Source: Candidatus Saccharimonadota bacterium (GTDB lineage Bacteria > Patescibacteriota > Saccharimonadia > UBA4664). Taken from it: a stretch of DNA of 64,000 nucleotides. The translations under genes were made by a program, and so were the position numbers. The stretch covers positions 19,120 to 83,119 of the forward strand of contig JACAFG010000002.1 of the NCBI GenBank assembly GCA_019352195.1. Reading direction: 5' to 3'. This document shows positions 14,330 to 45,007 of the stretch, one piece after another. Below the pieces are notes generated by a model, which worked only from the letters and a program-made list of their open reading frames with translations, did no database searches and was not told where the DNA came from. Position 1 is the stretch's first letter. Each line of letters starts with the position of its first letter.

Positions 14330-15086
14330 ACCTTGGGCTTTAATTACGGGAGCATCAGGCGGTATTGGGCTTGAGCTCACTCGGCTGGAGGCGGCTGATG
14401 GTTATAATCTGTTGTTGGTCGCGCGTGATGGGGCCGGTTTATCCAAAGTAGCAGCTGATTTAGCGGCCCATGACCGCCAAATTGATGTACTGGCGGTGGA
14501 TTTGGGTTTGCCGGGTGCCGCGGCCAAGGTAGCCGCGTGGGTGGGTGAGCGTCCGGTGGAGCTGTTGATTAATAATGCTGGTTTTGCCACTCACGGGGCC
14601 GTAGCCGAGATGGATCAAGCTGAGCTAGCGAGCGAAATTGGGGTCAATGTAACTACGCTCACTGAATTGTCACGCTTGATGCTGCCGGGGATGTAGCTCC
14701 GAAAGCGGGGTAAAATTCTCAATTTGGCATCAACGGCCGGTTTTCTGCCGGGTCCAGTGATGGCGGTTTACTATGCTACGAAAGCCTACGTGTTGTCATT
14801 TTCAGTGGCGTTGGCGGATGAGGTTAAACCAGATGGTGTTACGGTAACGGTGTTGTGTCCCGGGCCAACAAGAACCGGCTTTGCGGCGCGTGCCCAGGTG
14901 GAATCGTCACGCTTATTTAGGGGGCATGTGATGGAGGCATCGGTGGTTGCCAAAGCCGGCTACGACGGGTTAAAAAACGGCAAAGTAATAGTGGTGCCGG
15001 GTATCGGCAACAAACTTAATACCTGGGGCATCCGGTTAGTGCCACGAGTGCTAGCGGCCAAAGTGGCGCGACGAGAGCAATCATGA
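14316..15086 (+). pseudogene. short-chain dehydrogenase/reductase (SDR) interrupted by a single in-frame TAG at 14694..14696
   Basis: ORFs 14316..14696 and 14724..15086 are in the same frame. Reading through gives ...[38 protein letters not shown], a canonical SDR core (TGASGGIG glycine loop, YxxxK). Confidence 0.6.
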
Positions 15087-15502
15087 AGGCCTGGATTGGG
15101 GTCGTGGCACGTAGTCATGTCGAGCAGGGAATTCGAGAAAAGATTGCCCAACTGGGGCACGGTACACGAGCGCCATTGGCGCGCCTCAGCCCAGGAGACT
15201 GGCTGATCTACTATTCGTCGCAGTCCGAATATCCCGATGGTGAGCCGGTGCAAGCCTTTACGGCGATCGGACGAGTGCCCGATGATGAAATTTATGAGCA
15301 GGTAACCGAAAGTGGTTTTCACCCGTTTCGACGTCGGGTTGAGTATGTGGAGGCGAAAGAGGCGCCGATTAAACCGTTGTTACCCTATCTGTCGTTTAGT
15401 CGCAACACGTCCAATTGGGGCATGGTGATGCGGCGGGGATTGGTGGAGATTACCATAGAGGATGTGAAGCTGATTGCTGAAGCCATGGGCGCGACAGTTT
15501 AA
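15083..15502 (+). CDS. EVE/PUA-like domain protein (putative modified-base reader)
   Basis: 139 aa. GDWLIYYSS...AIGRV core and C-terminal RRRVEYVEAKEAPIKPLLPYLSF resemble the EVE (PF01878) pattern. Confidence 0.4.
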   Translation: MKAWIGVVARSHVEQGIREKIAQLGHGTRAPLARLSPGDWLIYYSSQSEYPDGEPVQAFTAIGRVPDDEIYEQVTESGFHPFRRRVEYVEAKEAPIKPLLPYLSFSRNTSNWGMVMRRGLVEITIEDVKLIAEAMGATV

Positions 15503-15519
15503 CAATCGGAAGGCCCAAA

Positions 15520-15546
15520 AAACGAGCCATTATGGCTCGTTTTTTA
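15520..15546. terminator. intrinsic terminator (A-tract, hairpin, T-tract; potentially bidirectional)
   Basis: aaaaaacgagccat-tat-ggctcgttttttag. Confidence 0.7.
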
Positions 15547-15810
15547 GTTACCTGAAGGCTCAAATAATTGAGCACTCGGGTAGTGGCCTCATCGAGTCGC
15601 CTGAAGGCGGCCCAGTGAGGCTATCATCACTTTTCCCGGTGATGAACTGTCGGGTGGTGGGCCGGACTACTCGCCCATGAGGGCTAGCTCGCGCGAGGTG
15701 AAGAGGCCGTACCGACTGAGGTCGGTGTTATCTTGTGGTAGTTCTGCGGGGATCCCGATCGGATCGGGGTCGGTCTCTCCCCGGGGAAGCTCGAAGGCGA
15801 GCTCGCTGGA

Positions 15811-15845
15811 TTGACGCATGTGCCTGCACCGCATACACTGTATGC
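15811..15845 (+). promoter_or_regulatory. promoter (TTGACG, 17-nt spacer, TACACT) with an overlapping perfect palindrome operator for the vapBC-like operon; the transcript is predicted leaderless
   Basis: The -10 box lies 6 nt before the ATG. GCATACA-C-TGTATGC palindrome at 15831..15845 straddles the -10 box. Confidence 0.5.
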
Positions 15846-16097
15846 ATGACAAATATTCAATACACCATTCGTAATATTCCCCCCGCGTTGGATCAGGTGA
15901 TCCGTAAGCGCGCGCAGCAATCGGGCAAGTCGTTTAATAAGACGGTTGTCGATTTGTTGGTGCAACAGGCCTTTGGAACGAAGGAGGTGCCGGTTGATGA
16001 TAATTTTGATTGGTTATTCGGGGTTAATACACTTGATCCGTCGTTTGATGAAGCGATTGCGGAACAATCGAAGCCCGATCCAAAGATGTGGGCGTGA
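15846..16097 (+). CDS. type II antitoxin, VapB/ribbon-helix-helix-like (84 aa)
   Basis: Small acidic protein MTNIQYTIRNIPPALDQVIRKRAQQSGKSFNK... Overlaps the downstream PIN-domain gene by 10 nt. Confidence 0.6.
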   Translation: MTNIQYTIRNIPPALDQVIRKRAQQSGKSFNKTVVDLLVQQAFGTKEVPVDDNFDWLFGVNTLDPSFDEAIAEQSKPDPKMWA

Positions 16098-16483
16098 AAT
16101 ACGTTCTCGACACGAGTGCTTTCTCGGCGTTTAATCGGGGCGATGTGCGCTTGGAGCGGTATCTTAGGAGTGAACATGAGATTTTGGTGCCGCTGGTGGT
16201 AATAGCCGAGCTGCGGGCCGGGTTTGCGCTGGGGAGTCGGCGGGCGGAAAATGACCGAATTTTGGAACGGTTATTGAATTCGTCCAATGTAACGGTGGTG
16301 AGCTTAAACGACGAAACGGCTAACGTCTATGCCGATGTTTTTTTACGCCAACGCGAGGTAGGCCGGCCGGTGGGGGCGAATGATATGTGGATTGCGGCTT
16401 CCGCGATTGAGCGTGATTTACCTGTGCTGACGCTTGACCATGATTTTGATGGAATTGTCGGCCTGAAAGTAGTGGAATTGTGA
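16088..16483 (+). CDS. vapC: PIN-domain toxin VapC
   Basis: VLDTSA...D motif and ...ND.WIAA. 131 aa. GTG start overlapping the antitoxin stop. Confidence 0.7.
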   Translation: MGVKYVLDTSAFSAFNRGDVRLERYLRSEHEILVPLVVIAELRAGFALGSRRAENDRILERLLNSSNVTVVSLNDETANVYADVFLRQREVGRPVGANDMWIAASAIERDLPVLTLDHDFDGIVGLKVVEL

Positions 16484-17184
16484 GCGTGACGGCGGTTCAA
16501 GATGAGCTACGTGAGCAAGGCTCACCTCAAAAGGCCCTTGGTTCGGGCGTGTTCTTTAAAACTGGGCCAGGCCAATATGGTGAGGGCGACGTGTTTTTGG
16601 GGGTGACGGTGCCGGAGCAGCGGATTATCGCAAAACGCCATCTGGATTTGAGTGTGAATCAGGTAGAAGAGCTGCTGCAATCCCCGGAGCACGAATTTCG
16701 GATGATGGCGCTGCTCATTTGGACATATCAGTTTGCTAGAGGCGACCTTAGCCAACGTAAAGCAATTTATGACGCTTATCTGGAAAATACGCGCTGGATT
16801 AATAATTGGGATCTGGTCGATGCCAGTGCCGAAATTGTCGGCCAATACATTGAGACCCATGAACGCACGATATTGGACAAGCTGGCCAGGTCGGGCGATA
16901 TCTGGGAGCGGCGGATTGCCATTGTGGCGCCATATTGGTTGATCAAGCAGGGTCAACCTGAGGATACGCTACGGATTGCGGCTCTATTACTGCACGATAA
17001 GCATGATCTTATCCACAAAGCCACCGGCTGGATGCTGCGCGAAGTGGGCAAACGTTGTTCGCAGGCGGTAGAGGAGGGATTTTTACGTGAGCATTACCAC
17101 ACTATGCCGCGGACGATGCTGCGCTACGCCATTGAACGATTTGAGCCGGAACTGAAGCGGGCCTACATGACAGGCGCCGTATGA
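16480..17184 (+). CDS. DNA alkylation repair protein (AlkD/AlkC-like HEAT-repeat glycosylase family)
   Basis: FFKTGPGQYGEGDVFLGVTVPEQR signature of PF08713. 234 aa. ATGA overlap with vapC. Confidence 0.65.
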   Translation: MSVTAVQDELREQGSPQKALGSGVFFKTGPGQYGEGDVFLGVTVPEQRIIAKRHLDLSVNQVEELLQSPEHEFRMMALLIWTYQFARGDLSQRKAIYDAYLENTRWINNWDLVDASAEIVGQYIETHERTILDKLARSGDIWERRIAIVAPYWLIKQGQPEDTLRIAALLLHDKHDLIHKATGWMLREVGKRCSQAVEEGFLREHYHTMPRTMLRYAIERFEPELKRAYMTGAV

Positions 17185-17576
17185 GCATGCGTCCAGCGGC
17201 GTTTGCCATTATTGTGCGGGGCCGAAAAATATTGATGGTACGGCTCGGGTACTACTCTCATTTCGCCGGCCGATGGAATTTTCCAGGCGGCTTTGTTGAT
17301 TGGAGCGAATCAATGGCGCGAACGGCTATTCGTGAAGTGCGAGAGGAAACGGGGCTTGAGCTGATAATAGAGCGGTCGTTTTGGCGCGGTCATGAATCAG
17401 CTAGTCAGCGATCAGTGGAGATGTTCGTGGGACAAGCAGTCGGCAATCTGAAGCTGCAGGCCTCAGAGATCGATGAGGCGGCGTGGTTTGAAATTGATGA
17501 TGCCATTGCGCTAGATCTAGCGTATCGGTGTAAGGACCGCTTGATGGAGCTCAAAGCCGAACGGGAGACAGCATGA
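17181..17576 (+). CDS. NUDIX hydrolase
   Basis: Nudix box GGFVDWSESMARTAIREVREETGL. Confidence 0.75.
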   Translation: MSMRPAAFAIIVRGRKILMVRLGYYSHFAGRWNFPGGFVDWSESMARTAIREVREETGLELIIERSFWRGHESASQRSVEMFVGQAVGNLKLQASEIDEAAWFEIDDAIALDLAYRCKDRLMELKAERETA

Positions 17577-17908
17577 TAAACGTCGCTGAATATTGCTTGG
17601 AAAAGCTGGGGGCTGAAGAAACCTATCCGTTTGATGCCACTACTACCGTTATGAAGGTGCACGGGAAGATGTTTGCTCTCATGGCGGCGGTCGAAAATCC
17701 GCCGAGTATCAATCTTAAATGCGATCCCACGCGATCGATATTGCTGCGGCAGGAGTATCCCGAGATTGCGGCGGGGTATCACATGAATAAGGTACATTGG
17801 AATACCCTAGATCTCACGGGTAACTTGCCCGATGCACTGGTTCGTGAACTTATTGATCATTCGTACGATCTCGTGGCCAAGACGAAACCAGCCAAAAATC
17901 CGGAATAA
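17573..17908 (+). CDS. MmcQ/YjbR-family DNA-binding protein
   Basis: KMFALM...INLKCDP...GYHMNKVHWNTL...SYDLV matches the PF04237 pattern. Confidence 0.65.
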   Translation: MINVAEYCLEKLGAEETYPFDATTTVMKVHGKMFALMAAVENPPSINLKCDPTRSILLRQEYPEIAAGYHMNKVHWNTLDLTGNLPDALVRELIDHSYDLVAKTKPAKNPE

Positions 17909-17998
17909 TTAGCTGTTATAAGCGAAAACCCCGCTGGCCGGTGAAGGCGAGCGGGGTGTCCGATGTGGCGGTCCATCGGAAGGGAGCGGCGGCGTTTG

Positions 17999-18433
17999 TT
18001 AGTTTGAAGCGGTTGAAGTCTGCGGTGGTACCGACACAGTAGTACTGCTGGTGGCTGGTGACTCGCCGGCGCTGCAGACCTTTGGAACCATTACTGTGGT
18101 CCCAATTGGCAGAATGGTAGCATCGTCACCGGCAAAGCCGTTGCGCAGACGAACCAATTGGGCCCAGCTGCTGGTACTGTCAGAACGACTCCAATCGAAG
18201 CCGGCTTCGCCAACTTCGGCTGGTTGCATGCCGGTCACGAAGTTGATCCAGCTGACCGGTTGGCCGTTGACTTTGATTGGGCCGTTGCAGGCGTACACTG
18301 CCTCCTGCTTTCCAACCGAACTGGTGTCAGGAGAGCAGGCCGACAATCCCAGGGTGAGACTGACGGCTGCGGCCGCTGCCAGGATGAAGCGGACGAAGGG
18401 ACGGTGGGCGGGTCGTGCGGGGGCGATTCTCAT
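17999..18433 (-). CDS. putative secreted lipoprotein
   Basis: Likely start at M48 of the 191-aa six-frame ORF: MRIAPARPAHRPFVRFILAAAAAVSLTLGLSAC with an LSAC lipobox. Confidence 0.45.
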   Translation of the reverse strand: MRIAPARPAHRPFVRFILAAAAAVSLTLGLSACSPDTSSVGKQEAVYACNGPIKVNGQPVSWINFVTGMQPAEVGEAGFDWSRSDSTSSWAQLVRLRNGFAGDDATILPIGTTVMVPKVCSAGESPATSSTTVSVPPQTSTASN

Positions 18434-18545
18434 CGCGGGGCTCCAAGTTGTGGGGTGCGGAATGTACCTTGCTGAGCCTGTGACGGGTGTCGCAGGCTCA
18501 GTGGGGTGCCGGAGATATCGCTCTCCGGCAGGCGTCGAACGCTTA

Positions 18546-18923
18546 CTAGCAAATGACCTCGATATGACCGTCATCGTAGGCTACCAGGAAGACCGGTGGC
18601 TCGATGCCATATTCGTCGGCCAAATCCAAGACAACATCGCGGAGTATCACATTGCCGAACTGCGTTCTCATCCAGGCGTCTTCGGACAAGACAACGGCGG
18701 CCATGGTGCGTTCAGTCCTGTCCAAGATGGACGTGGCCATAATTTGGGCTGTCTGGTCTTGCTTGTGTAGCGGGACGTCGGCGCAAGTCCATTGCTCAAT
18801 GGTCATTGATACTACGTATGTAATCACGACGTCATCTTCCTTGAGGAAGGTGACGAGCTGGGGTAGCTGGTCGGCGTTGATGCCAACTGCTATAAGTCGG
18901 ATGGACGTGGTGGTTGTCTTCAT
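18546..18923 (-). CDS. hypothetical protein (125 aa)
   Basis: Protein-like composition (MKTTTTSIRLIAVGINADQLPQLVTFL...). Upstream AT-rich divergent promoter region 18930..19090. Confidence 0.4.
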   Translation of the reverse strand: MKTTTTSIRLIAVGINADQLPQLVTFLKEDDVVITYVVSMTIEQWTCADVPLHKQDQTAQIMATSILDRTERTMAAVVLSEDAWMRTQFGNVILRDVVLDLADEYGIEPPVFLVAYDDGHIEVIC

Positions 18924-19091
18924 AACGGATCCTTAAGCTGCGTTCGTCGGGCGGCTCCCGATCGATTGCGACACATCATACTGCTTTTGCTCAATTATGT
19001 CAATATTAATATAGTTAATTTTGCAATTTGAATTCAATATTCTGTCACAATTTAACTTTACAAACATATTAAAACGTGCTAAATTTCAGTC

Positions 19092-19901
19092 ATGTCACCC
19101 GATTTACTCATCAAAATGGGGCTCACGCCTGCTCAGGCGCAAACGTATCTCGAACTTGTAAAAGCTGGCAGTTTGACGCCACCCAAGCTCGCGGTCGCCA
19201 TTAATGAGAGCCGGACGACGGCTTATATGGCGTTGGCTAGGTTGGAAGAAGTTGGCTTAGCCATTAAACAAAATGGTGCCAAAAAACAGACCTACGAACC
19301 GGCGAGCCCGTCGGCGCTAGAGAAGTTCTTATCTGATCGCCAACGCGATTTGGCCGAGACGGAGCGGGCCTATCGCGAGGCGCTGCCCAATTTGCTCAGC
19401 TATTACTACACCTATCGCGGTAAGCCCGGCGTACGATTTTTTGAGGGCGGTGATGGATTGGAAAAGCTGTATGAGGACATTTTGCGTACCCGAGCCGAGG
19501 TTGATATTGTTCGCACCCCGGCGGATGAGCTATATTTCGGTGATGGTCGTGATGGCAATACGATTCTCGGTAAATATCTCAACGCGCGGGCAGCATTAGG
19601 GATTGAGTCGCAACTCTTGGCGCCAGTGTTGCCGGGGCCAATGGTGTGGGCGAAGAGCAATGATGAACGGCTGAAGCGGGTGGTTACCTGGTATCCGCCA
19701 AAGGCCTATGAGTCGCCGGTTGAGGTCAATATTTATGGCAATAAAGTGTCGCTTATCTCATTTGGTGACGAGACGATTGGGACGATTATTGAAAGTCCCC
19801 AGATAGCGGCGGCGATGCGAGAGTTGTACGCTATGGCGCAGGTTGGGGCGCGGGCTTTGATGGCTGCGGCCGAATTGGATCAGAAAAGCTCGGATAAATA
19901 G
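19092..19901 (+). CDS. TrmB-family transcriptional regulator
   Basis: N-terminal wHTH (LGLTPAQAQTYLELVKAGSLTPPKLA) plus a C-terminal TrmB-like domain. 269 aa. Confidence 0.5.
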   Translation: MSPDLLIKMGLTPAQAQTYLELVKAGSLTPPKLAVAINESRTTAYMALARLEEVGLAIKQNGAKKQTYEPASPSALEKFLSDRQRDLAETERAYREALPNLLSYYYTYRGKPGVRFFEGGDGLEKLYEDILRTRAEVDIVRTPADELYFGDGRDGNTILGKYLNARAALGIESQLLAPVLPGPMVWAKSNDERLKRVVTWYPPKAYESPVEVNIYGNKVSLISFGDETIGTIIESPQIAAAMRELYAMAQVGARALMAAAELDQKSSDK

Positions 19902-19904
19902 CAA

Positions 19905-19950
19905 AAGGCCCACCGAATGTCCGCGCGGATGCGGAACAAATCGGTGGGCC
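19905..19950 (+). terminator. terminator-like hairpin after the TrmB-family gene
   Basis: ggcccaccga-N24-tcggtgggcc, a 10-bp stem. Confidence 0.45.
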
Positions 19951-19962
19951 CGTGAGAGCGAG

Positions 19963-20385
19963 GTGGTGTCGGCATGGCAGGGGCTGGGGTATAACCGACG
20001 TGGGTTGTGGCTCCATCGGGCGGCTGGGCAGATTGTAGGCCAGTTTGGTGGAGTGATACCGCGCGATCCGGCCGAACTCGTTACGTTACCGGGAATTGGG
20101 CCCAATACAGCTGGTTCGATCGCAGCATTTGCGTACAATTTGCCCGTAGTATTTATAGAAACCAATATTCGGCGCGTGTTTATCCACGAGTTTTTCCCGA
20201 ATGTCGATCATGCTCCGATGGGTCGTGTGGCGACGGTTACCCGCCCGATCTCGACTACACGGAATCTGCGGCGCGACCCAGAGCCCTCTTTGGTTGTATC
20301 CGGAGTCACGGGCGTACGCGACGATCAATTATTACCGTTAATTGAGGCTAGCTTAGACCCCGATGAGCCGAGACAGTGGTACTAG
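19963..20385 (+). pseudogene. remnant of an A/G-specific adenine glycosylase (MutY/HhH-GPD); only the central HhH segment is intact
   Basis: AWQGLGYNRRGLWLHRAAGQIVGQFGGVIPRDPAELVTLPGIGPNTAGSIAAFAY aligns to MutY WSGLGYYARARNLH...LPGVGRSTAGAI. No N-terminal roughly 45 aa. Downstream sequence loses similarity and the 4Fe-4S Cys loop is absent in all frames. Confidence 0.5.
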
Positions 20386-20391
20386 GCTCTC

Positions 20392-20643
20392 ATGGATTAC
20401 GGGAGCTGGCTGGCTTCCCAAGTGCCTAATCCCAACCGCCGTAGCCAGCATTACGCGGTGCAGAGCACGTTTGAAGGCTCGGCGAGGCAGGTACGAGGTG
20501 AACTGTTGCGTCGGGTACTGGTGGGGCCGATGACAACCGCTGAAATTGAGGCTATTGATACGAGAGCGCCGGCCTTGGCCGCCCAACTTGTGAAAGAGGG
20601 CTTTTTGATGGTAGCAGCCGGTTGCTTCCAGATGGTACGATGA
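20392..20643 (+). CDS. hypothetical small protein (83 aa)
   Basis: ORF with winged-helix-like segment LRRVLVGPMTTAEIEAID. Uncertain. Confidence 0.3.
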   Translation: MDYGSWLASQVPNPNRRSQHYAVQSTFEGSARQVRGELLRRVLVGPMTTAEIEAIDTRAPALAAQLVKEGFLMVAAGCFQMVR

Positions 20644-20647
20644 ATCA

Positions 20648-21774: not shown

Positions 21775-21839
21775 GCGGTTATTATAGCGTAGCGAGGCGG
21801 GTGATTGTTTGATCGACGGTAGACCGGTAAAATTCCCCC

Positions 21840-24142: not shown

Positions 24143-24453
24143 CACCCCAAAGATTGCGGGCAATCCGGTCCGTAATTCGTTTTTCTCGTACATCACGAAG
24201 GATGTGACCGGAAGTGGCTCGCTCGCCCAAATGCTCCATGTGCGGTACCGTGCTTGATCAAGCATCACGGCAACGATTGAGGCCGCTGGTGTATTTAGCG
24301 GTCGACAATTCAATCGCCTCCACGGTCCGTGCTGGCATGAAGTGGACCAAATCAATTGCACGAAAACATGACCGGCAAAGCCCTCGCACTGTAATGGTGC
24401 GGGGGTTCGCCTTTTGTTCGCATATATCAGATGGAGAGTAGTATAATTAGGGT

Positions 24454-26238
24454 ATGGATGAGCGGACAGAAATAAAGGAACGGCTGTCGATTACCGAGGT
24501 GGTGTCAGCTTATTTGCCGCTCAAGCAAGCCGGACGCAGCCTGAAAGCGCCGTGCCCGTTTCATCAGGAAAAGTCAGCTAGCTTCATGGTTAATCCCGAG
24601 CGGGGAATTTATCACTGCTTCGGGTGCAATGAGGGCGGAGATATCTTTAGTTTTGTCATGAAGATGGAAGGGCTCAGTTTTCCTGAGGCGCTCGAAAAAT
24701 TGGCAAGACAGGCTGGAGTTGAGCTGAAAGCCAAGCGTCCGGAAGACACGGCGGCCTCGGCCAAGCGGGTGAGATTATATACCGCGCACGAGTTAGCGGT
24801 GCGGTACTTTCAGGCTTCGCTCGTCAAGAACCCTAAAGCCCTCGAATACATCATAAAAAAGCGCGGCCTGACACGTCAGACGGTGAAGGATTTTCAGATC
24901 GGTTATGCACCCGACTCGTGGAATGCACTAACTGATTTCTTGGCCAGTAAGGGTTATACATATTCTGAACTGTTGGAAGCGGGTTTGGCGGGTCAGAAAG
25001 AAGGACGTCAAACAGTTTACGACTTGTTTCGCGGGCGAATTATGTTTCCTATTACGGATCGCGACGGCCGCCCGATTGGCTTCACGGCGCGCGTACTCGA
25101 CGACAGTTTGCCGAAATATCTTAATACTCCCCAGACACCGCTGTATGATAAAAGTCGGGCTATTTTTGGACAGTTTTTGGCGCGAGATGCGATTCGGGCC
25201 AATGATGAAGTAGTGCTCGTAGAAGGCAATATGGACGTGGTGGCGAGCCATCAGGCCGATGTGAAGCAAGTGGTGGCGGCTAGCGGTACGGCGCTGACCT
25301 TGGACCAGCTGCGCACGCTTAGTAAACTGACCAAAAATATTAAGCTGGCCTTTGACACCGACCGCGCGGGTCTCGCCGCTACCGAACGCGCCATTGAGCT
25401 CGGGGGCCAGTTGGGTCTAACGCTGCGGATGGTGGTGATTGAGGGCGCTAAAGACGCCGATGAACTCATTAGTAAAGATGTGAGTGCTTGGTCGGCGGCC
25501 ATAGCTAATGCCAAGTATATTGTTGACTATTTATTTGACCGCTTTGCCACTGATTACGACCTTACTTCGGCGATTGGTAAGCGCCAGTACACCGATCGGC
25601 TAGCTATTACGTTGCGTCGCTTGGGCGATCCAGTGGAGCAAAACCATTATGTAAGGCGGCTGGCTGAAGCAACCGACACGAGCGAAGAAGCGATTCGCGC
25701 CAAAATGGAGCAAGCCCAGGAGCGGCCATCGTCGAGCCGCACACCAAAAACTGCGGTCACGTCAAACGCTGCTGGGTCGTTACCGGCAACGGGTGCTCCG
25801 GTACGTCTAACTAAGGCGCATAAAAATCGTAACCAGCGCGAAGACGAATTGTTGGCCATTTGTTTGTATGAGCCGCTGGCGCGGATTGCGCTGGAAGATC
25901 TCACTAGCGAGCATTTTAGCCGACCAGAGAGCCAAGAGCTGTACCTAATGCTGTCTGAGCACACGCACGATAATCCAGATCAAATAATTGGTGCGCTGGG
26001 TGACCCGGCCTATGGGTCGCAGTGCATTTTTTATGCGGAGCGCATGTTTGGCGGGTACGAACGGCGTGAATTGCCGGAGAAAGCTTTTAAATCAGCCGAC
26101 CGTTTGCAAGACGTGGTGGAAGAAGTCTGGCGCGAAGAAATTAACCGCGAGCTCGAAACAGCCGAGCGTGACGGTGACGAGGCGGCTTGGACCCGCCTGA
26201 TGACACGGTTAAACGCGATGAATCAGCGCAAAGCGTAG
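24454..26238 (+). CDS. dnaG: DNA primase
   Basis: CHC2 zinc finger (CPFHQEKSASF...HCFGCNEGGD), TOPRIM (VLVEGNMDV). 594 aa. Confidence 0.9.
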   Translation: MDERTEIKERLSITEVVSAYLPLKQAGRSLKAPCPFHQEKSASFMVNPERGIYHCFGCNEGGDIFSFVMKMEGLSFPEALEKLARQAGVELKAKRPEDTAASAKRVRLYTAHELAVRYFQASLVKNPKALEYIIKKRGLTRQTVKDFQIGYAPDSWNALTDFLASKGYTYSELLEAGLAGQKEGRQTVYDLFRGRIMFPITDRDGRPIGFTARVLDDSLPKYLNTPQTPLYDKSRAIFGQFLARDAIRANDEVVLVEGNMDVVASHQADVKQVVAASGTALTLDQLRTLSKLTKNIKLAFDTDRAGLAATERAIELGGQLGLTLRMVVIEGAKDADELISKDVSAWSAAIANAKYIVDYLFDRFATDYDLTSAIGKRQYTDRLAITLRRLGDPVEQNHYVRRLAEATDTSEEAIRAKMEQAQERPSSSRTPKTAVTSNAAGSLPATGAPVRLTKAHKNRNQREDELLAICLYEPLARIALEDLTSEHFSRPESQELYLMLSEHTHDNPDQIIGALGDPAYGSQCIFYAERMFGGYERRELPEKAFKSADRLQDVVEEVWREEINRELETAERDGDEAAWTRLMTRLNAMNQRKA

Positions 26239-27595: not shown

Positions 27596-27603
27596 TCTGA
27601 GCG

Positions 27604-27668: not shown

Positions 27669-28299
27669 GTGGGAAATGACGCATACAAATGGGTCCGTAA
27701 GAATGATGAGGAAATTATTCTCCGTTTTGCTGATCCAAGGATAATAAGGCCAGTTGAAAATCCAATTACTTTTTTATGGCTGGCTCGCCCGGCGCCGGTA
27801 AGACTGAATGGGCACGTTCATTGATCGTCAACCTCGCAAATGACAAAGAAGAACCGACAGAGTTTGTTCACATAGACCCTGACGAAATAAGAAAGCTATT
27901 TGATGGCTATAATGGCACAAATGTTTCGGAATTTACTCGAGCAACTAGTACTGCGGTAGGACGTATTCTTGATCGGACAAATCGTCTTGGACAAAACGTC
28001 ATTGTCGACGGGACCTTATCCAGGTATGATGCCGTGGCGAAAGACGTTGATTCTTATATAGGAAACATGGTCGGAGCACAGTAATTTTCTTTGTATACCA
28101 AAAGCCGGAATTAGCTTGGTATTTCACGAAGGCAAGGGCAGCTGACCCTGAAGACGGGCGCGTTGTTGATAAGCTGACATCGATTGCCGCATACGTGTAG
28201 TCTATCCAAAATGCCAACGCCTTAAAGCGTAAATACGGATCACATATACAACTTCATATCATTGAAAAAGATGCGTTGAATAGGGTAAAAAAGGTTTAA
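27669..28299 (+). pseudogene. zeta-toxin-like / AAA_33-type P-loop kinase gene, degraded by two frameshifts and one in-frame TAG
   Basis: GTG at 27669 after an aggaga RBS gives MGNDAYKWVRKNDEEIILRFADPRIIRPVENPITF. A T6 run at 27770..27775 shifts frame into MAGSPGAGKTEWARSLIV... (Walker A), continuing to 28084. Protein-like continuation lies in a third frame from 28087 (FFVYQKPELAWYFTKARAADPEDGRVVDKLTSIAAYV). An in-frame TAG at 28198 is followed by SIQNANALKRKYGSHIQLHIIEKDALNRVKKV, ending at 28299. Confidence 0.5.
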
Positions 28300-28316
28300 T
28301 TTTAATAAACACACTA

Positions 28317-28345
28317 TTGACAACTATGTTGAAAAAGTCTATAGT
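28317..28345 (+). promoter_or_regulatory. near-consensus sigma70 promoter (TTGACA, 17-nt spacer, TATAGT) for the small basic-protein gene
   Basis: TTGACAactatgttgaaaaagtcTATAGT. Confidence 0.6.
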
Positions 28346-28370
28346 ATTAATTAATTGGAGGAACTAATTA

Positions 28371-28648: not shown

Positions 28649-30043
28649 ATGGAACGTGAACTAACTGAGAAATGTGCCGTGTTTGGTGCGCTCACGACGA
28701 GCCGCTATGCTACGCGTCTGAGGTATTATGGACTGTTTGCACTGCAGCATCGCGGTCAGGAGAGCTCAGGAATTGCGAGCTCAATTGAAGGCGGCTTGAA
28801 GCGCCACGCCGGGGAAGGCCTGGTAGCGCATGTGTACCGCGCCGAAGATTTGGACGATCTGAAAAGCAGTTTAGCGATTGGTCATAATAGATATGCGACT
28901 TCTGGCGGTAATCCTGGTGACCAAGTACAGCCAATTGTGGACTCTACCCTTGGATTTGCGTTTGCCCACAACGGAAATTTGCCAGAAACCGTGAAGCTGG
29001 AGAAGTTTCTATCGGAGCACGGTATTCGTCATGATGATGTTAGTGATTCGCGCATGATGGCGCTAGCCATTGGATGTTACATGAGTGAGGGTAATAGCCT
29101 AACGGCAGCGATAGAACTGGCATGGCCCTTATTTACCGGCGCTTTTTTATGTGTCGCCATGACTGAAGATACGATAGCTGGGTTTAGGGACGCTTACGGC
29201 ATCCGGCCCTTGTCGTTAGGTAAGCTTGATGATGGATACGCCATTGCTTCGGAGACGTGCGCCTTTGATACCGTAGGGGCGGCGTTCTTGCGCGATATTA
29301 AGCCCGGCGAGCTCGTGACAGTGACGGCGCAAGGGGTGAAGTATAAGCAAGTGGTAGTCTCGCCGCGGACGGCGCTCGACGTGTTTGAATATGTTTATTT
29401 TGCTCGTCCTGACAGCATGATCATGGGCCGGCGCGTAAACGAGGTTCGTCGCAAACTGGGCGAAAATTTGGCGCGTGAATTCAAAATTGAAGCTGATGTG
29501 GTGGTGCCGGTGCCCGATTCAGCGATTCCGGCGGCCCTTGGCTACGCGGCGGCGACGGGGATACGGTTTGACCATGGCTTCATCAAAAATCGGTATATTC
29601 ACCGGACGTTTATTAAGCCAACCCAGGAAATGCGTGAGTGTGATGTTAAAACCAAGCTCAATCCGGTGCCTGAGGCGGTGATGGGTAAGCGGGTGATTGT
29701 GATCGATGACTCAATTGTGCGCGGTACGACCACGGCGCAGATCGTCGATATGCTTTATGGCGCGGGTGCTACCCAGGTGCACGTGCTCGTGAGCTCGCCG
29801 CCAGTTAAGTTTCCCGATTTTTACGGTATTAATACACCCGATCCGCGCGAACTTATTGCCTCATATATGACTGAGGACGAAATCCGCGATCAAATGGGGG
29901 CAGGTTCACTCGGGTATTTGTCGATGGATGGAATGATTTCAGCCACCGGCTGGCCCAAAAATAAGCTCAATACCAGTAGTTTTGACGGTGAATATCCGAT
30001 TGATATTGGTGACCGGGCTCGGGTCATTTTACGCTCCCGCTAG
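28649..30043 (+). CDS. purF: amidophosphoribosyltransferase
   Basis: Ntn Cys in (M)ERELTEKCAVFGAL and PRTase motif VIVIDDSIVRGTT. Six-frame ORF begins at 28601 (GTG). ATG 28649 gives a short propeptide before Cys. Confidence 0.85.
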   Translation: MERELTEKCAVFGALTTSRYATRLRYYGLFALQHRGQESSGIASSIEGGLKRHAGEGLVAHVYRAEDLDDLKSSLAIGHNRYATSGGNPGDQVQPIVDSTLGFAFAHNGNLPETVKLEKFLSEHGIRHDDVSDSRMMALAIGCYMSEGNSLTAAIELAWPLFTGAFLCVAMTEDTIAGFRDAYGIRPLSLGKLDDGYAIASETCAFDTVGAAFLRDIKPGELVTVTAQGVKYKQVVVSPRTALDVFEYVYFARPDSMIMGRRVNEVRRKLGENLAREFKIEADVVVPVPDSAIPAALGYAAATGIRFDHGFIKNRYIHRTFIKPTQEMRECDVKTKLNPVPEAVMGKRVIVIDDSIVRGTTTAQIVDMLYGAGATQVHVLVSSPPVKFPDFYGINTPDPRELIASYMTEDEIRDQMGAGSLGYLSMDGMISATGWPKNKLNTSSFDGEYPIDIGDRARVILRSR

Positions 30044-35126: not shown

Positions 35127-35136
35127 GGTTTTCTCG

Positions 35137-35799: not shown

Positions 35800-35800
35800 G

Positions 35801-36145: not shown

Positions 36146-36187
36146 AATATCTTGATTATACCAGCAAAATGCTTAGGCGAAAGAGGG

Positions 36188-36484: not shown

Positions 36485-36578
36485 GATATGCCTTTTTAGT
36501 TGGTTCTATCTTACCTGAGAACAGATAATAATTCAGCCCGAGCAACGAATTGCTCGGGCTGAATGGACTGCGGACTGA

Positions 36579-37496
36579 CTAGAGCTGGTGGCGGTGGACT
36601 GCACGTGTCCAGAGTTCCTGGAGGTGCTGGTACGCATCCCAGGTGGGATTTATACCATATCTTACCGCCACAACGCCCCGCGGAAGACTAGGATCTAAGG
36701 CGGCGACTTGCGCGAACCACTGCTGAACTTGGCTAACGGACATCGGTTCGTGAATCGACAATACGGGTCGTCTGCTAACCGCGTGCCGGGCTATAACCTC
36801 GGCATCCATTTGTACGACCCGTCGGGCGGCCAGCGCCTGACCCATCTCCGAGAGCGGTCGATGTTTCGCCGCCCTTTTGTGCCGCTTGGTGCTACGGGAG
36901 TAGTGCATCCGAGCCGATCTTGGAGACCGGTGATGAGTGTCATTGGTCTCTTGCTGGCCAGTCATGATGAGACGGACCATGAAGTCGTAGATGGCCGTGA
37001 CGAGTATGAGGAGCATTGATCTCATCGCGTCCGACCGGTCAAGCCACATGTTTGATGCACGGGCCATGGCCGAATTGTCTTCATCCACGCGCGCGTGGCG
37101 TCCAGGTGCGGGCGGCCAAACGAGATGCTCGGGTTGGGGCAGACCTGGGAACGGACCGTCGAAGTAGTTGTGCTCGACGATAGCCGTCCGGATCAGCCTA
37201 GCCCGTCTCATCTGGCGGGGACTCGGCACATGGTCGAAGATTTGCCCTGCTCGGAAGATGGTGGTCCTGAAGATCACCCAACCTAGTGCTATCAGATCCA
37301 TGATGATGAAGATGGGGCTGAACCGGAACAGCGGAATAGCCTCGCCAACACCGCCAAAGATGTAGAATCCGGACAGAACTACGACCAGAATGGCGAAATT
37401 GCGCCGGGCTTCGTGGTAGTGGGTCAAGATGCTCTTGGCCCACAAGGCAGGGTAGTCGGCTTCGGTCGGGAGTTCATCCCGGTAGGAGATTTTCAT
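36579..37496 (-). CDS. hypothetical membrane protein (2 N-terminal TM helices plus a soluble C-terminal domain)
   Basis: Start taken at M16 (MKISYRDEL...). Hydrophobic segments ILVVVLSGFYIFGGV and IFIIMDLIALGWVIF. Confidence 0.45.
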   Translation of the reverse strand: MKISYRDELPTEADYPALWAKSILTHYHEARRNFAILVVVLSGFYIFGGVGEAIPLFRFSPIFIIMDLIALGWVIFRTTIFRAGQIFDHVPSPRQMRRARLIRTAIVEHNYFDGPFPGLPQPEHLVWPPAPGRHARVDEDNSAMARASNMWLDRSDAMRSMLLILVTAIYDFMVRLIMTGQQETNDTHHRSPRSARMHYSRSTKRHKRAAKHRPLSEMGQALAARRVVQMDAEVIARHAVSRRPVLSIHEPMSVSQVQQWFAQVAALDPSLPRGVVAVRYGINPTWDAYQHLQELWTRAVHRHQL

Positions 37497-37628
37497 ATTG
37501 GTCCTTTGGTCGCAGGTAGGTGCAGGAGAGCAGTAAAGCATTTATATCATGTATTGAGTAATAATACAATGTCTGGCTGCCGAACATGTCCTGTTTGAGC
37601 TATAATTACCAGATAGAAGGATGGCGTT

Positions 37629-39451: not shown

Positions 39452-39478
39452 TAGTTACTTGCGACGCTGGCGGACGGT

Positions 39479-39694
39479 TTAGTAGCCATTTTCTTGGTCG
39501 GCTTCTTGGATTTCTTCGAGGAGCATTTCCAAATCACTGGCCTGTTGTGTCACCTGACGTAGTTCGCCTTTGGCCAGCCAGGCGTTGCCCGGCACGGTGG
39601 CGTGGTCGCGCAAACGACTGAGCCGGTTGCTCATATCTTCGAGCAAATCGACAAGTTTTGCGCGTAGAGGATCAATGGGAGGTGGTTTAGCCAT
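39479..39694 (-). CDS. hypothetical small protein (71 aa)
   Basis: Helical, acidic C-terminus. No RBS seen. Confidence 0.3.
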   Translation of the reverse strand: MAKPPPIDPLRAKLVDLLEDMSNRLSRLRDHATVPGNAWLAKGELRQVTQQASDLEMLLEEIQEADQENGY

Positions 39695-39738
39695 GGTTTA
39701 AGATTGCCACGTTGTGGAGCCCGGAGCAATGAGAACGG

Positions 39739-40350
39739 CTAAAGTTTGGTGGCGCTGGCGGCGGTGTAGGTACGATTTTGGCCGAGCTTATGATAATTAC
39801 CGAACCTTTGGGTGAGATGGCGTTTCATGTAGTCTTTGAGGCCCGCAATGGTGACGACAACCAGAGTGCCGCCTGGTTTTAGTTGGGCATCGGCGTCTTC
39901 GAGAAAGATCTGCAACTGTTCAGAGCCAATTTTGGCAGGAATATTAGACACAATAAGGTCGAATTTGAGATCGGACGCGACATTGCTAAATCCGTTTGAA
40001 AGGTAGGCCCTAGCATTGGGGAGGTGGTTGAGCTGGGCATTCTTGTTGGCATATTCAACCGCCACAAAATCCTTATCCACGAGGTGCGTTTGACCCTGTG
40101 GCGCTAATTTTGCGAGTAATAAGCCTAATGGGCCGTAGCCACAGCCGAGGTCGAGGCAATCATCGGTTGGTTTTACGTCCAGGTTATTGGCCAGCAAATA
40201 CGTACCTTCATCAACCCCGCGAGGGCTAAAAAGGCCCCAAGTACTCGTAAAGTTCAACAGTTGATCCTGTAACGTGGCATCAAAAACCAGATCGGCGCGG
40301 ATAGCACCGTCTGGTGTTTTGAGGGCTTGGCGTTTTGCGTTGGTAGCCAT
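39739..40350 (-). CDS. class I SAM-dependent methyltransferase, MTS (RsmC/RsmD-like rRNA N2-G methyltransferase) family
   Basis: FSPRGVDEGTYLL, LDLGCGYGPLG, VSNIP motifs. Confidence 0.55.
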   Translation of the reverse strand: MATNAKRQALKTPDGAIRADLVFDATLQDQLLNFTSTWGLFSPRGVDEGTYLLANNLDVKPTDDCLDLGCGYGPLGLLLAKLAPQGQTHLVDKDFVAVEYANKNAQLNHLPNARAYLSNGFSNVASDLKFDLIVSNIPAKIGSEQLQIFLEDADAQLKPGGTLVVVTIAGLKDYMKRHLTQRFGNYHKLGQNRTYTAASATKL

Positions 40351-40381
40351 ACAGCAAGAGAGGCTCTCGGCGAGCCTCTAG

Positions 40382-40801
40382 TTACTTCTTGTCGTCGGTC
40401 TTGGCAGCAGCTTTAGGAGCAGCTTTTTTGGCTGGGGCTTTTTTAGCTACTGGAGCCTTGGCGGCGGGGGCTTTCTTAGTCGTGGCCTTTTTGGCACCGG
40501 CACCAGCACCCTTGGTGGTTTTGGCTTCGACTACAGGAGCATCACCGGTAATCTTGGCAACAGCCGCGGCGAGCTGACTCTTACGCCTAGCAGCAGTATT
40601 TTTGTGCAAGGTGTGCTTTTTTACAGCACGATCGATCTCGGAGTAGGCAGCGGCTAACATTTCGTCGACGTGCTCACCGGTTTCGATAGCGTTGTGTACG
40701 GCCAGAACATCGGCCTTCACGGCGCGCTTGGTCTGAAGGTTGCGGCTGCGGCGTGTGAGCGACTGCTTAGCTCGCTTAATAGCTGATTTGATGATGGGCA
40801 T
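40382..40801 (-). CDS. rpsT: 30S ribosomal protein S20 with a roughly 55-aa Ala/Lys/Pro-rich C-terminal extension
   Basis: MPIIKSAIKRAKQSLTRRSRN... S20 core (about 85 aa) followed by KGAGAGAKKATTKKAPAAKAPVAKKAPAKKAAPKAAAKTDDKK. Confidence 0.85.
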   Translation of the reverse strand: MPIIKSAIKRAKQSLTRRSRNLQTKRAVKADVLAVHNAIETGEHVDEMLAAAYSEIDRAVKKHTLHKNTAARRKSQLAAAVAKITGDAPVVEAKTTKGAGAGAKKATTKKAPAAKAPVAKKAPAKKAAPKAAAKTDDKK

Positions 40802-41004
40802 AGAAAACCTTTAGGATTAGTTGCTATCTGGTAACTTAGATACAGATCGGCGCACCTGGCGCCAAATACCCTAGGACTATACCTGAAACTGAGCTTGGTG
40901 TAAAGCAAATATAAGAGATTATATCCTAAGCATAAGCGTAACTATTGACTTTTTAGGTTAAACAGTGTATATTCATACATTGATTAACTATTAAAGGGTA
41001 CTGC

Positions 41005-42168
41005 GTGGACCTAACTCCCAAACAACAGACGTCTGAGGCGATTCGCCAAGCCGAAACGATTCTTATCACTACTGGACAGCGCCCAAATGTTGACCAGGTA
41101 GCCGCGACGTTGTCGATGGCCGCTATTTTGCGTAAATTCGGCAAAAAGGTAAGTGTTATTATCTCCGATCAGCTGCCGGGCCCGGCTCAGTGGCTTGATA
41201 CCAAAGGTGTAGATTCGCGCCTCAGCGGCTTGCGAGATTTTATCCTAAAGGTAAATACTACTAAGGTTGAAGTCGATAGCCTCCGTTATGAGCCCGATGG
41301 CGATCATCTCAAAATTTACATAACGCCGTTTGCGGGTGGTTTTGCACCGAGCGACGTGACGTTTGATTATGGCGATTTCCATTACGATTTGGCGATTATT
41401 TTGGGTGTGCCGCAGCGCAACCGAATTGATAAGGTCTATACCGAGCACGCCGCTATTTTTGCGAGCATTCCGGTCGTTAACATCGATTTTCATCGTATCA
41501 ACGAGAGCTATGGAGCCATCAACTTAATTGAGCCAACGGCTTCGAGTATTTCGGAAATGCTGGTTGCAACGAGCGAAAGCTTACAAACTGGCCTGATTGA
41601 TGCTGACATTGCTACCATGATGCTTGGCGGAATTATGGCCGCGACTGATCGTTTTACGGCGCCCCACACGACGAGCAAAAGTCTAACAGTGGCGGCTCAG
41701 ATGATGGCCGCTGGTGCCGATCAGCAGGCAGTGGTTCGTGGTCTGTACGGCGGCCGTGCCGACGGCCCGCGGAGCAATGATTCTAATCGTCCAACGCGAC
41801 CCGACGGCGCGAGTGGTCCGTTTCCGGCCAAAACTCCGGCCGCAGCTCCCTCGGCTCCTGCTGCCCAAAGTCAGCCAGTAGTAGCCCCAGCACCGGCTCC
41901 AGCTTCAGTCCCGGCCCAAGCGCCTACCGAAGCTAAACCAAGCGACGAAGTACGTTTGCCACAGGATTATCAGCCGAGCGACGAATCGGCGCCGGTAGAA
42001 CCGTTGATTGAGCCCGATCATATTGAGCTGATGAGCGCGGCAATGGCCCACGACGAATCGGCGGACGTCGAGCTGCCAACCGCCGCTCCGGTACTGCCAA
42101 TGGCAGATTTCTCGGCGGCCGCTGAAATCTTGCGTAACCGAATTGAGCCCGAGCCAACTCAGGCCTAA
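41005..42168 (+). CDS. DHH/DHHA1-fold (NrnA-like) protein with degenerate catalytic motifs and a Pro/Ala-rich C-terminal tail
   Basis: Collinear with NrnA, but DHH motifs are altered (ILITTGQRPNVDQVAATLS for HxxPDgDalGS, IDFH for DHH, LGGI for GGGH). C-terminal roughly 130 aa low-complexity PAAAPSAPAAQ... Confidence 0.4.
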   Translation: MDLTPKQQTSEAIRQAETILITTGQRPNVDQVAATLSMAAILRKFGKKVSVIISDQLPGPAQWLDTKGVDSRLSGLRDFILKVNTTKVEVDSLRYEPDGDHLKIYITPFAGGFAPSDVTFDYGDFHYDLAIILGVPQRNRIDKVYTEHAAIFASIPVVNIDFHRINESYGAINLIEPTASSISEMLVATSESLQTGLIDADIATMMLGGIMAATDRFTAPHTTSKSLTVAAQMMAAGADQQAVVRGLYGGRADGPRSNDSNRPTRPDGASGPFPAKTPAAAPSAPAAQSQPVVAPAPAPASVPAQAPTEAKPSDEVRLPQDYQPSDESAPVEPLIEPDHIELMSAAMAHDESADVELPTAAPVLPMADFSAAAEILRNRIEPEPTQA

Positions 42169-42199
42169 CAATTTGCTAATCCGCGCTATACTGGAGGCC

Positions 42200-42868
42200 A
42201 TGAACGGCCTCCTTTTAGTTAATAAACCAATTGGCATAACCAGCTTTGATATCATCCGGACACTGCGCCGGGTTGGACCAGAGCAAAAAATTGGCCATGC
42301 CGGTACGCTCGATCCGTTAGCAAGCGGGCTGATGCTGTTGCTATTTGGTACGGCGTGTAAGCAGGCCCAGACTTTGAGCGGACTTGATAAGCGTTATGTG
42401 GCACAAATTACCTTGGGTGCTACGTCGACGACGGGCGACAATGAAGGCGAGAAAACTCCTGTTTCTAGTTTAGTTCCCGATCTGGCAGCGGTCCAAGAGG
42501 TGGTAGCCAAGCTACAAGGGGTACTGCGGCAGACGCCGTCTCAGTATTCGGCCATAAAAATTGATGGCAAAGAAGCTTATAAGTACGCTCGAGCTGGAAA
42601 AATTGTCGAAATGCCGAGCCGGGAAGTGACGATTTATGAGTCAATTATTGAAAAGTATAACTATCCAGTTATTGAACTAAATGCCAAAGTATCGAGCGGA
42701 ACCTATATTAGGAGCTTAGCGGAAGATATGGGGACTGAGCTCGCCTCCGGAGCCTATTTAAGCGGGTTGGTACGGGTTGAAGTGGGCAAGTACCATTTGG
42801 ACGAGGCCCTGACGCTCGATGAATTTGATGCGCCAGCGGTAATTGAGCAGCATTTGCTCGAGTTGTAA
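42200..42868 (+). CDS. truB: tRNA pseudouridine(55) synthase
   Basis: MNGLLLVNKPIGITSFD...GHAGTLDPLASG. Six-frame ORF starts at 42143 (TTG). ATG 42200 matches the canonical TruB N-terminus. Confidence 0.8.
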   Translation: MNGLLLVNKPIGITSFDIIRTLRRVGPEQKIGHAGTLDPLASGLMLLLFGTACKQAQTLSGLDKRYVAQITLGATSTTGDNEGEKTPVSSLVPDLAAVQEVVAKLQGVLRQTPSQYSAIKIDGKEAYKYARAGKIVEMPSREVTIYESIIEKYNYPVIELNAKVSSGTYIRSLAEDMGTELASGAYLSGLVRVEVGKYHLDEALTLDEFDAPAVIEQHLLEL

Positions 42869-43004
42869 ATTGACTTTTGAGCTTAAATCTTCTATTTTCA
42901 TCATTAACTCCAACTGCTGATTCAAAAATTCACCAGCGGGAGTTGCATAAAATTTGCCCGTGTTCACGCCTAGTGATCTCCGCCGATTGGTGGAAAGGCA
43001 ATTC

Positions 43005-43315
43005 ATGAGTGAAATATCGGAGCCTCCTGGGGCGAGCTCATCTCGCCGCCTAAGAGGCAGGTTTGGCGTTGGTACGTCGGGATAGCGCTGGTGCTAGCAG
43101 CAGCGGCGTTCATCGTCTTGATGCGAATGTATTCGGTCACGGCCGGGCGTTGGGCTACGGTGGTGGTGTTTGCACAGCTCACGTTGCTCGCCTGGCATTG
43201 GTTTGCCACCACATCTCGGCCCCATTACGGTCGCCTGGTGGCGTTTCTGAGCTTATTCATCATGAGCGCTGTGTTGGCGCTTATTGCAGGGTTCAGCTTG
43301 CTCGGGGTAATTTAG
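43005..43315 (+). CDS. possible small membrane protein; the start region may contain a frameshift
   Basis: The hydrophobic ORF 43091..43315 lacks an ATG. An upstream ATG at 43005 with a ggaaagg RBS is in another frame. Confidence 0.25.
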
Positions 43316-43470
43316 GCCGAGACGTTCGGGCAACAAATTGTCGTCGGCCGGAGTGAAAACTTCGGCCGACGGCCTCACATTTGTTCCATTATCTGATAAT
43401 GTGGCTGGTGCGAGGTTTTTTGACCTCCGAGTTCACTCATCGATCTTCGACAACCTAGATAGGACTAGCT

Positions 43471-43785
43471 GTGACCGACCCATTAGATGATTGGCGTTTT
43501 ATCCTTGCTAGCACCGAGCATGTCAGCGTCGTGCTTGGGACCGACCGTGTCACCCTGACCTATTCACCGGCCAGGAAAATATTGGTGGTGGCCATCGATT
43601 CGGACAGCCGTAATGCTGTGACGGTGAGGGTATACTCCACCTTTCCAAGCGCAAAAACCCCGACCGAGCCGATCGCGACCGGCGTGGTGGATAATCGCAT
43701 GACGCGATTGACGCTGCCCTCAGATTTCGGGCGACGTCATATCGAGCACCTGAAACTTGTGATAGGCGCAGACGAAATCGAGTAG
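43471..43785 (+). CDS. hypothetical protein (104 aa)
   Basis: Protein-like ORF. No motif recognised. Confidence 0.4.
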   Translation: MTDPLDDWRFILASTEHVSVVLGTDRVTLTYSPARKILVVAIDSDSRNAVTVRVYSTFPSAKTPTEPIATGVVDNRMTRLTLPSDFGRRHIEHLKLVIGADEIE

Positions 43786-43807
43786 TGTCCTCGCGCTTTC
43801 AGCGAGT

Positions 43808-44170
43808 TTGGCCTACCAATCAGATTGGAGTTACCAGATGGACAAAACAAGCTCCCAAGCGAGTCCTGCACCTGTCAAAGCCGAGAAAGCTCCCATTTGG
43901 TGGCCCAAAGAGCGCTCGCTGCGGGCGCGTAATGTGCTGATGGCCATGTGGCTGCTGCTTTGGCTGACGGCGTGTCTTGCTAGCCGGCAGACGCTCGTTG
44001 AGGCATGGCTCGTGGTAGCGCTGTTTGCCGGCGTTATTCCGCCATTTTTGCTTGAACGGCACAACCAAACGTTGGCATCTCAGCGGCGCGCGACCTTGTG
44101 GTACGTCTCGGTGTGCGGTCTCGTGGCCGTGGCGGGGAGCGTGCTGATTGTTGCGGTTTCGCATAGGTAA
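43808..44170 (+). CDS. hypothetical membrane protein (2 TM)
   Basis: LMAMWLLLWLTACLA and WLVVALFAGVIPPFLL helices. Followed by terminator hairpin ccgccgacc-N15-ggtcggcgg (44189..44221). Confidence 0.45.
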   Translation: MAYQSDWSYQMDKTSSQASPAPVKAEKAPIWWPKERSLRARNVLMAMWLLLWLTACLASRQTLVEAWLVVALFAGVIPPFLLERHNQTLASQRRATLWYVSVCGLVAVAGSVLIVAVSHR

Positions 44171-44309
44171 GAGCCGCTTGTTTTACCGCCGACCGAGGCT
44201 AAATACCTTGGTCGGCGGGCCCGACTTTCATTTCAAGCGTAAACGGTTTGAAGTAAGAGCAGGGTAGTGACTTGCATATGTTGCTCAAATCTGATAGTAT
44301 TCTGGAGTT

Positions 44310-44576
44310 ATGTTGAAACCAGAAGCCAAAACTAAGGTTATCAATGGGTTGCAGACCCACAAGCAGGACACCGGATCACCGGAAGTTCAGGTTGGTATTT
44401 TTACGGCCCAAATTAAGAGCCTCACTACGCACCTACAAGAGCACAAGAAAGACGAGCACTCTCGTCGCGGTTTGCTGAAGATGGTAAGTAAGCGTCGTCG
44501 TTTGCTCGACTACTTGGCTAAGAAAGATATCAACCGTTATCAGGAAGTGCTGAAGAAGCTCGAACTTCGCCGCTAA
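44310..44576 (+). CDS. rpsO: 30S ribosomal protein S15
   Basis: 88 aa. [21 protein letters not shown]...[18 protein letters not shown]. Confidence 0.9.
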
Positions 44577-44705
44577 TTTCTGCCAGAGGGTCGGCTGTAA
44601 GGTCGGCCCTTCTGCTTTTGCGCAATTACTTCACGCCTCGGATCCGGTAGGTTGATCCAAAGCGCGAGGCAATTGCCCCGCGTTCCTAGTGATTGGACCT
44701 TTGAG

Positions 44706-45007
44706 ATGACTGACGCCAGTGCGTTCGTAACCGTTACGCCGCTACAGCAATACCCCGGATTTATCGTGCTCAAGTCAGGTGTGAAGTAGTCCACGCTATT
44801 TGGAGCGGCGATACGGCGGACGCGGACTTTTCCAGAGGAATTGGGGGTATCAACTACAAGCTGCGGCTCGCAGCTAAGCGTGCCGGTGGTAATGCAGTTC
44901 TGGGCGTCAACTACAGCTTTACGATCGCCGCCTTTAGATTGCGAGTCGTGGGCTACGGCGCGGCCGTATGGCTGGATGAGATCACGCCGATCCCCAGTGC
45001 GACATAA
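44706..45007 (+). pseudogene. YbjQ/UPF0145-family gene with an in-frame TAG (44787) and a downstream frameshift
   Basis: MTDASAFVTVTPLQQYPGFIVLKSGVK* aligns to the YbjQ N-terminus. The remainder (…GIGGINYKLRLAAKRAGGNAVLGVNYSFTIAAF…VVGYGAAVWL) lies in another frame. Confidence 0.45.

Follow-up and report, generated by a model that had tools for sequence, protein, structure and literature searches.

Gene decay under the standard code as the probable source of in-frame TAG codons in a Saccharimonadales genome

Genes interrupted by the stop codon TAG in a bacterial genome may be decaying, or the codon may sometimes be read as an amino acid. This question is raised by a stretch of 64,000 nucleotides (nt) from a Candidatus Saccharimonadota bacterium (NCBI GenBank assembly GCA_019352195.1, contig JACAFG010000002.1, positions 19,120 to 83,119), the whole of which is called the window here. 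An earlier, sequence-only reading had listed three genes in it, for a short-chain dehydrogenase (SDR), a zeta-toxin-like kinase and a YbjQ-like protein, as otherwise protein-like and as continuing recognisably in the same frame beyond an internal TAG, and had considered decay more likely than reassignment of the amber codon. The TAGs are present, at 14694-14696, 28198-28200 and 44787-44789, but the same-frame continuation fails at the YbjQ-like gene and only the SDR gene is otherwise protein-like. Comparison with a syntenic relative adds a fourth in-frame TAG, absent from that list, at 20383-20385 in the remnant of a mutY-like DNA glycosylase gene. The preference for decay is borne out: the genome, a member of the Saccharimonadales (Saccharibacteria/TM7, Patescibacteria), very probably uses the standard code and contains at least four genes at differing stages of ordinary mutational decay. 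These are:

14316-15086, plus strand: SDR gene whose only lesion is the in-frame TAG at 14694-14696
19957-20643, plus strand: remnant of a mutY-like HhH-GPD DNA glycosylase gene, with TAG at 20383-20385, about 70 N-terminal codons lost and a 34-codon insertion
27669-28352, plus strand: zeta-toxin-like kinase pseudogene with two 1-nt frameshifts, a probable third, and TAG at 28198-28200
44706-45007, plus strand: YbjQ-like pseudogene, the frame of its N-terminal part ending at TAG 44787-44789 and that of its C-terminal part at TAA 45005-45007

Translated through its TAG, the SDR gene matches the Pfam family adh_short (E = 9.3e-41) in one stretch covering residues 7-192, and the product can be aligned over its whole length with 16 complete SDRs, of which the closest is 65% identical, so that the claim of continuity made for this gene is upheld. 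The TAG column is occupied by Leu or Ile in all 16 homologues, and each of the 32 invariant columns downstream of it is kept, among them those of the catalytic Ser, Tyr and Lys. The best homologue is the orthologue in the syntenic relative, which is intact, 252 residues long and has ATA (Ile) at the position of the TAG; the window copy is 68% identical to it upstream of the TAG and 61% downstream. The TAG would thus be the gene's only lesion, a nonsense mutation of very recent evolutionary origin. The oxidoreductase would then have been inactivated very recently by one substitution, for which TTG to TAG is plausibly the simplest path.

The relative, represented by a contig of 1.09 Mb, shares with the window the gene order PGI, MsrB, EVE, SDR, NUDIX, YjbR, HhH-GPD, PHP, DnaG, RpoD, and at the syntenic positions both its SDR and its HhH-GPD genes are uninterrupted. 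The second comparison shows that two called genes of the window, 19963-20385 (140 residues, with the HHH motif) and 20392-20643 (83 residues), are one glycosylase gene split by the TAG: the remnant aligns with the intact orthologue of 266 residues in a single tblastn high-scoring segment pair (HSP), at 65% identity, that crosses it. The orthologue has TAC (Tyr) at this codon, so that one C-to-G substitution accounts for the stop. Taking the SDR and glycosylase genes together, identity to the orthologues is 61-71% downstream of the TAGs versus 68-81% upstream. The glycosylase gene is also truncated. Its match to the NCBIfam mutY model begins only at profile position 69, the Pfam HhH-GPD domain is undetected, and the missing N-terminus was searched for across the window and found nowhere. 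YjbR and the glycosylase are separated by 22 nt in the relative and by about 2 kb in the window, where the 5' end of the gene is replaced by the following segment:

17909-19956, no strand assigned: about 2 kb absent from the relative, with a gene for a TrmB-family regulator at 19092-19901 (plus strand) and two minus-strand open reading frames (ORFs)

The glycosylase gene would thus have lost its 5' end beside this segment and, in addition, have undergone the change from TAC to TAG.

For the zeta-toxin-like gene, the expectation that homology continues past the TAG is only half the story. Six homologues (about 235 residues, about 40% identical) each produce three collinear tblastn HSPs, in frames +3 (27669-27791), +2 (27773 to 28051 or 28096) and +1 (28063-28302). 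The last does run in frame through the TAG at 28198, but the spread over three frames implies at least two frameshifts, the first at a run of six T residues (27770-27775) and the second near 28052-28072. A third is probable at a run of six A residues (28287-28292), after which the C-terminal tail, reading RFNFNKHTIDNYVEKVYSIN, is apparently in a further frame, as judged by eye and without statistical support. When reconstructed, the protein matches Pfam Zeta_toxin (E = 6.9e-29) and aligns with the homologues of about 235 residues over 96-100% of its length; the residue in the TAG column is variable among them (Q, S, K, L, F, A or T). The gene therefore reads as a multi-lesion pseudogene, in which two to three 1-nt indels would have accompanied the TAG and which, given the frameshifts, would stay broken even if the TAG were read through. 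Neither a zeta-like nor a YbjQ-like orthologue was found in related loci.

The YbjQ-like gene lies just upstream of an apparent duplicate:

45053-45337, plus strand: intact YbjQ-like paralogue of 94 residues, with a weak match to Pfam YbjQ_2, called in the NCBI and Logan assemblies

Its N-terminal part, VTVTPLQQYPG, resembles VVVTKLQQLPG of the paralogue. The C-terminal part, KLRLAAKRAGGNAVLGVNYSF...VVGYGAAVWLD (GGNAVLG...YGAAVWLD), also resembles the paralogue and is found not in the frame of the TAG but in another, which lacks a start codon before 44939. This other-frame segment matches YbjQ_2 with E = 4.2e-05, and a protein repaired by 1 nt does so with E = 1.8e-05 over residues 16-91, both below the curated cutoff, while the same-frame read-through beyond the TAG has no Pfam match. 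The gene would accordingly be a duplicate broken by a 1-nt frameshift, and the TAG may be only the first out-of-frame stop. If the frames joined before 44787, the loss of one nucleotide would explain everything and the TAG would never have been in frame; a junction scan against the paralogue scored about equally anywhere in 44758-44845. With the repaired protein as query, a word-index homologue search gave no match and an exhaustive HMMER search of 1.84 billion representatives gave three weak ones, of 5-10 stretches each and repeat-like. There are therefore no usable homologues with which to fix the exact position of the frameshift. An AlphaFold2 model of the repaired protein (mean predicted local distance difference test score 53.9) was uninformative and not used. 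No YbjQ-like gene occurs in the rpsO-pnp spacers of 80 related genomes, and the closest relative (L007) has an unrelated ORF of 128 residues there.

Homology across the lesion is thus evident for the SDR, zeta-like and mutY-like genes and weak for the YbjQ-like gene, where it consists of Pfam matches at about 1e-5 and the resemblance to the paralogue. Three of the four genes carry frameshifts or a truncation besides their TAG and, counted together, these other lesions are no rarer than the TAGs themselves: there is one truncation, and the 1-nt indels number three or four. The products of the broken genes are presumably non-functional.

If TAG had a special meaning in this genome, it should not serve as a terminator at conserved C-termini. 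The 69 intact called genes of the window end on TAA in 38 cases, on TAG in 18 (26%) and on TGA in 13, and contain no internal stops. Essential genes are among those ending on TAG, and the four named in the sequence-only reading, dnaG, purF, pnp and ftsK, are confirmed in sequence to do so:

26236-26238, plus strand: TAG terminator of dnaG; the DnaG orthologue of the syntenic relative aligns to within 6 codons of the stop
30041-30043, plus strand: TAG terminator of purF, with TGA immediately after
47682-47684, plus strand: TAG terminator of pnp; alignments of related PNPases reach residue 697-703 of 703 in the query
53209-53211, plus strand: TAG terminator of ftsK; another TAG follows one codon on, and the C-terminal FtsK_gamma domain is present

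The stops of pnp and dnaG coincide with the ends of the orthologous proteins. The closest relatives of the PNPase are from metagenome-assembled genomes (MAGs) of Saccharimonadales or Saccharibacteria, at 81%, 71%, 64% identity and below. TAG terminators are unevenly distributed between strands, ending 9 of the 15 genes on the minus strand but 9 of the 54 on the plus strand (Fisher p = 0.0017, from a small sample). The plus strand has a positive GC skew, which would suggest the opposite bias, and most minus-strand genes are hypothetical.

Further split genes were sought in the window. The TAG at 37284 was rejected since it is antisense to a plausible membrane-protein gene, that at 9398 since the surrounding sequence is unlike protein, and that at 1621-1623 since each of the two tandem genes that flank it has a start and an N-terminal hydrophobic helix of its own. 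Pairs of same-frame ORFs separated by TAA proved to be separate known genes. A screen for split genes by codon-usage coding potential was too insensitive, missing known sites. Beyond the window, the contig flanks yielded neither a convincing split gene nor another tRNA.

Recurrence of TAG in particular had been put forward as a signal. Given the codon usage of the window's genes, single-base nonsense changes are expected to yield TAG in a proportion of 0.47, whatever the transition/transversion ratio, so that about 47% of nonsense mutations here should be TAG: codons one step from TAG are common in the window, making it the likeliest nonsense outcome. The probability that all are TAG by chance is then 0.106 for three of three and 0.050 for four of four. 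These values are compatible with chance, and the restriction of the nonsense codons to TAG would be a coincidence.

Some observations nevertheless weigh against decay under the standard code. The three unambiguous nonsense codons are all TAG, with no in-frame TAA or TGA, which is suggestive if not significant (p≈0.11). Neither the SDR gene nor the 85 post-TAG codons of the glycosylase remnant show further decay, which may reflect very recent inactivation or, equally, continued translation. Finally, the assemblies that agree on the lesions (see below) may stem from the same or related read sets and so are not fully independent.

The first two of these points would be expected if termination at UAG were leaky, through a suppressor tRNA with a CUA anticodon or a weak release factor 1, so that full-length SDR were still made by read-through and TAG mutations were preferentially tolerated. 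The SDR gene, which keeps every invariant residue downstream of its TAG, is formally compatible with this, and its TAG is directly followed by C; UAG-C is a weak termination context. It is, however, the only one of the four that is so compatible, since the frameshifts or 5' truncation of the others place them beyond rescue by read-through. Moreover, the residues replaced vary from site to site (Leu or Ile in the SDR, Tyr in the glycosylase, a variable residue in the zeta-like kinase), so that, contrary to what reassignment would predict, no single amino acid corresponds to the internal TAGs. No tRNA-CUA is found in 78.7 kb of contig, comprising the window and its flanks, where the sole tRNA is tRNA-Ser(GGA), and no pyl-type families are found among the gene calls of the same region. 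Added to the use of TAG to end a quarter of the intact genes and the compatibility of the TAG-only pattern with chance, this makes amber suppression very improbable. A published screen of more than 250,000 genomes is also relevant: it found five clades with candidate new codes, at least four of them arginine-codon reassignments, lists none for the Saccharibacteria group and, within the Candidate Phyla Radiation, mentions only Absconditabacteria, in which UGA is also known to be read as Gly (PMC8629427).

Literature searches for Saccharibacteria pseudogene or stop-codon reports, and on the assembly accessions, found nothing relevant.

Sequencing or assembly artefacts should also be considered, the TAGs and indels then being consensus errors in genes that are intact in the organism. 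Two of the zeta-like frameshifts coincide with homopolymer runs, and the possible sharing of read data among assemblies has been mentioned. Nonetheless, the window, the NCBI MAG contig JABBYD010000045.1 (GCA_017884045.1, 119 kb) and Logan contigs from SRR11551193 agree base for base at all the lesion sites, and the fragment proteins of the window recur in a further NCBI assembly labelled 'Candidatus Saccharibacteria bacterium' (HJC99_*, on a 244,848-bp contig). Within intact genes there are 25 homopolymer runs of at least 6 and 140 of at least 5 without a frameshift, and so the indels are not general sequencing noise. Only a few genes, all accessory, hold the lesions, and 69 others are free of them; the truncation of the mutY-like gene, involving about 2 kb, is structural. 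We consider an artefact very unlikely.

Over the stretches compared, the MAG and Logan sequences are 100% identical to the window with two exceptions. One is a 101-nt indel at 24258/24259, where the window lacks 101 nt that are present in the MAG and Logan sequences (L001 19944-20044); the difference reflects either strain variation or assembly. The absence removes most of a Cys-rich ORF of 55 residues (L001 19899-20066), containing CxxCxGxG and lying upstream of dnaG, and shifts its frame. The other is a single nucleotide polymorphism at 47531 in pnp, A in the window and Logan but C in the MAG, which is synonymous (CGA or CGC, both Arg). Close variants therefore exist and, with the SDR lesion being very young, it could be asked whether the lesions, and the single TAG of the SDR gene above all, are alleles of one strain that coexist with intact ones. 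The same TAG is, however, in all available assemblies, and a collection of 5.8 billion proteins contains no intact SDR allele above 65% identity. Such variation within the population is unlikely, and the lesions are probably fixed mutations.

Decay under the standard code places the window among phenomena of an already known kind, the ordinary pseudogenes of reduced-genome bacteria. Textbook examples of reductive pseudogenes come from Mycobacterium leprae, Rickettsia and Sodalis, and Saccharibacteria are themselves episymbionts with reduced genomes. As in those cases, recognisable genes are broken by premature stops, by 1-nt indels (two of them at homopolymer runs) and by truncation, their orthologues are intact in a syntenic relative, and the genes hit are accessory, coding for an oxidoreductase, a toxin-like kinase, a DNA repair glycosylase and a duplicate YbjQ-like protein. 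We see no essential difference; the density here is four in about 73 gene loci, from one window.

Other known systems resemble the window less. Pyrrolysine decoding of UAG depends on pylTSBCD and is found in Methanosarcinaceae and some Firmicutes and Deltaproteobacteria. The likeness is confined to the SDR gene, where an in-frame TAG lies within an otherwise intact gene. By contrast, the genes hit here are not methylamine methyltransferases, the TAG columns hold Leu/Ile or Tyr, neither pyl genes nor tRNA-CUA occur in the sequence examined, and three of the four genes are otherwise broken. Genetic code 25, in which UGA is read as Gly, occurs in Gracilibacteria/Absconditabacteria, and some phages recode TAG, so that the phylum offers a precedent for a changed stop-codon meaning; in the window, however, all three stops terminate, and the C-termini at which TAG ends conserved genes are themselves conserved. 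Nonsense suppressor tRNAs, such as supE and supF of Escherichia coli laboratory strains, would be a closer parallel inasmuch as partial amber read-through coexists with use of TAG as a terminator, but none was found in the 78.7 kb and the pattern needs no suppressor.

The result is thus mainly a negative one, removing a candidate for amber recoding in Patescibacteria, where sister lineages reassign UGA: random nonsense mutation is enough to make recurrent TAGs expected in this genome. The window would also record ongoing gene loss in a Saccharibacteria genome, in keeping with reductive evolution; a mutY-like DNA repair glycosylase is among the losses. Were leaky UAG termination or a low-level suppressor present after all, amber mutations would be partly masked and accumulate preferentially, and full-length SDR would still be made.

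Several other features of the region deserve brief mention. A toxin-antitoxin pair of FitA-like and PIN (VapBC-type) proteins is encoded at 15846-16483, near the SDR gene, and a large serine recombinase (L087 18315-19922) about 4 kb past the 3' end of the window; both are hints that the region includes mobile or accessory DNA. Following groEL, some 2 kb (8791-10785) are without a credible ORF, an unusually long non-coding stretch for Saccharibacteria. It has no Pfam match in six frames and matches no Rfam family at gathering score, giving only chance-level matches with E up to 1, and it contains strong hairpins, for example at 8956-9012, 10016-10066 and 10635-10677. Lastly, the tandem minus-strand ORFs at 1621-1941 and 1054-1596 each encode a hydrophobic helix at the start and a globular part after it. 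They are more protein-like than the plus-strand ORF called publicly at 1000-1527, and the strand at 1054-1941 may thus be miscalled in the public gene calls.

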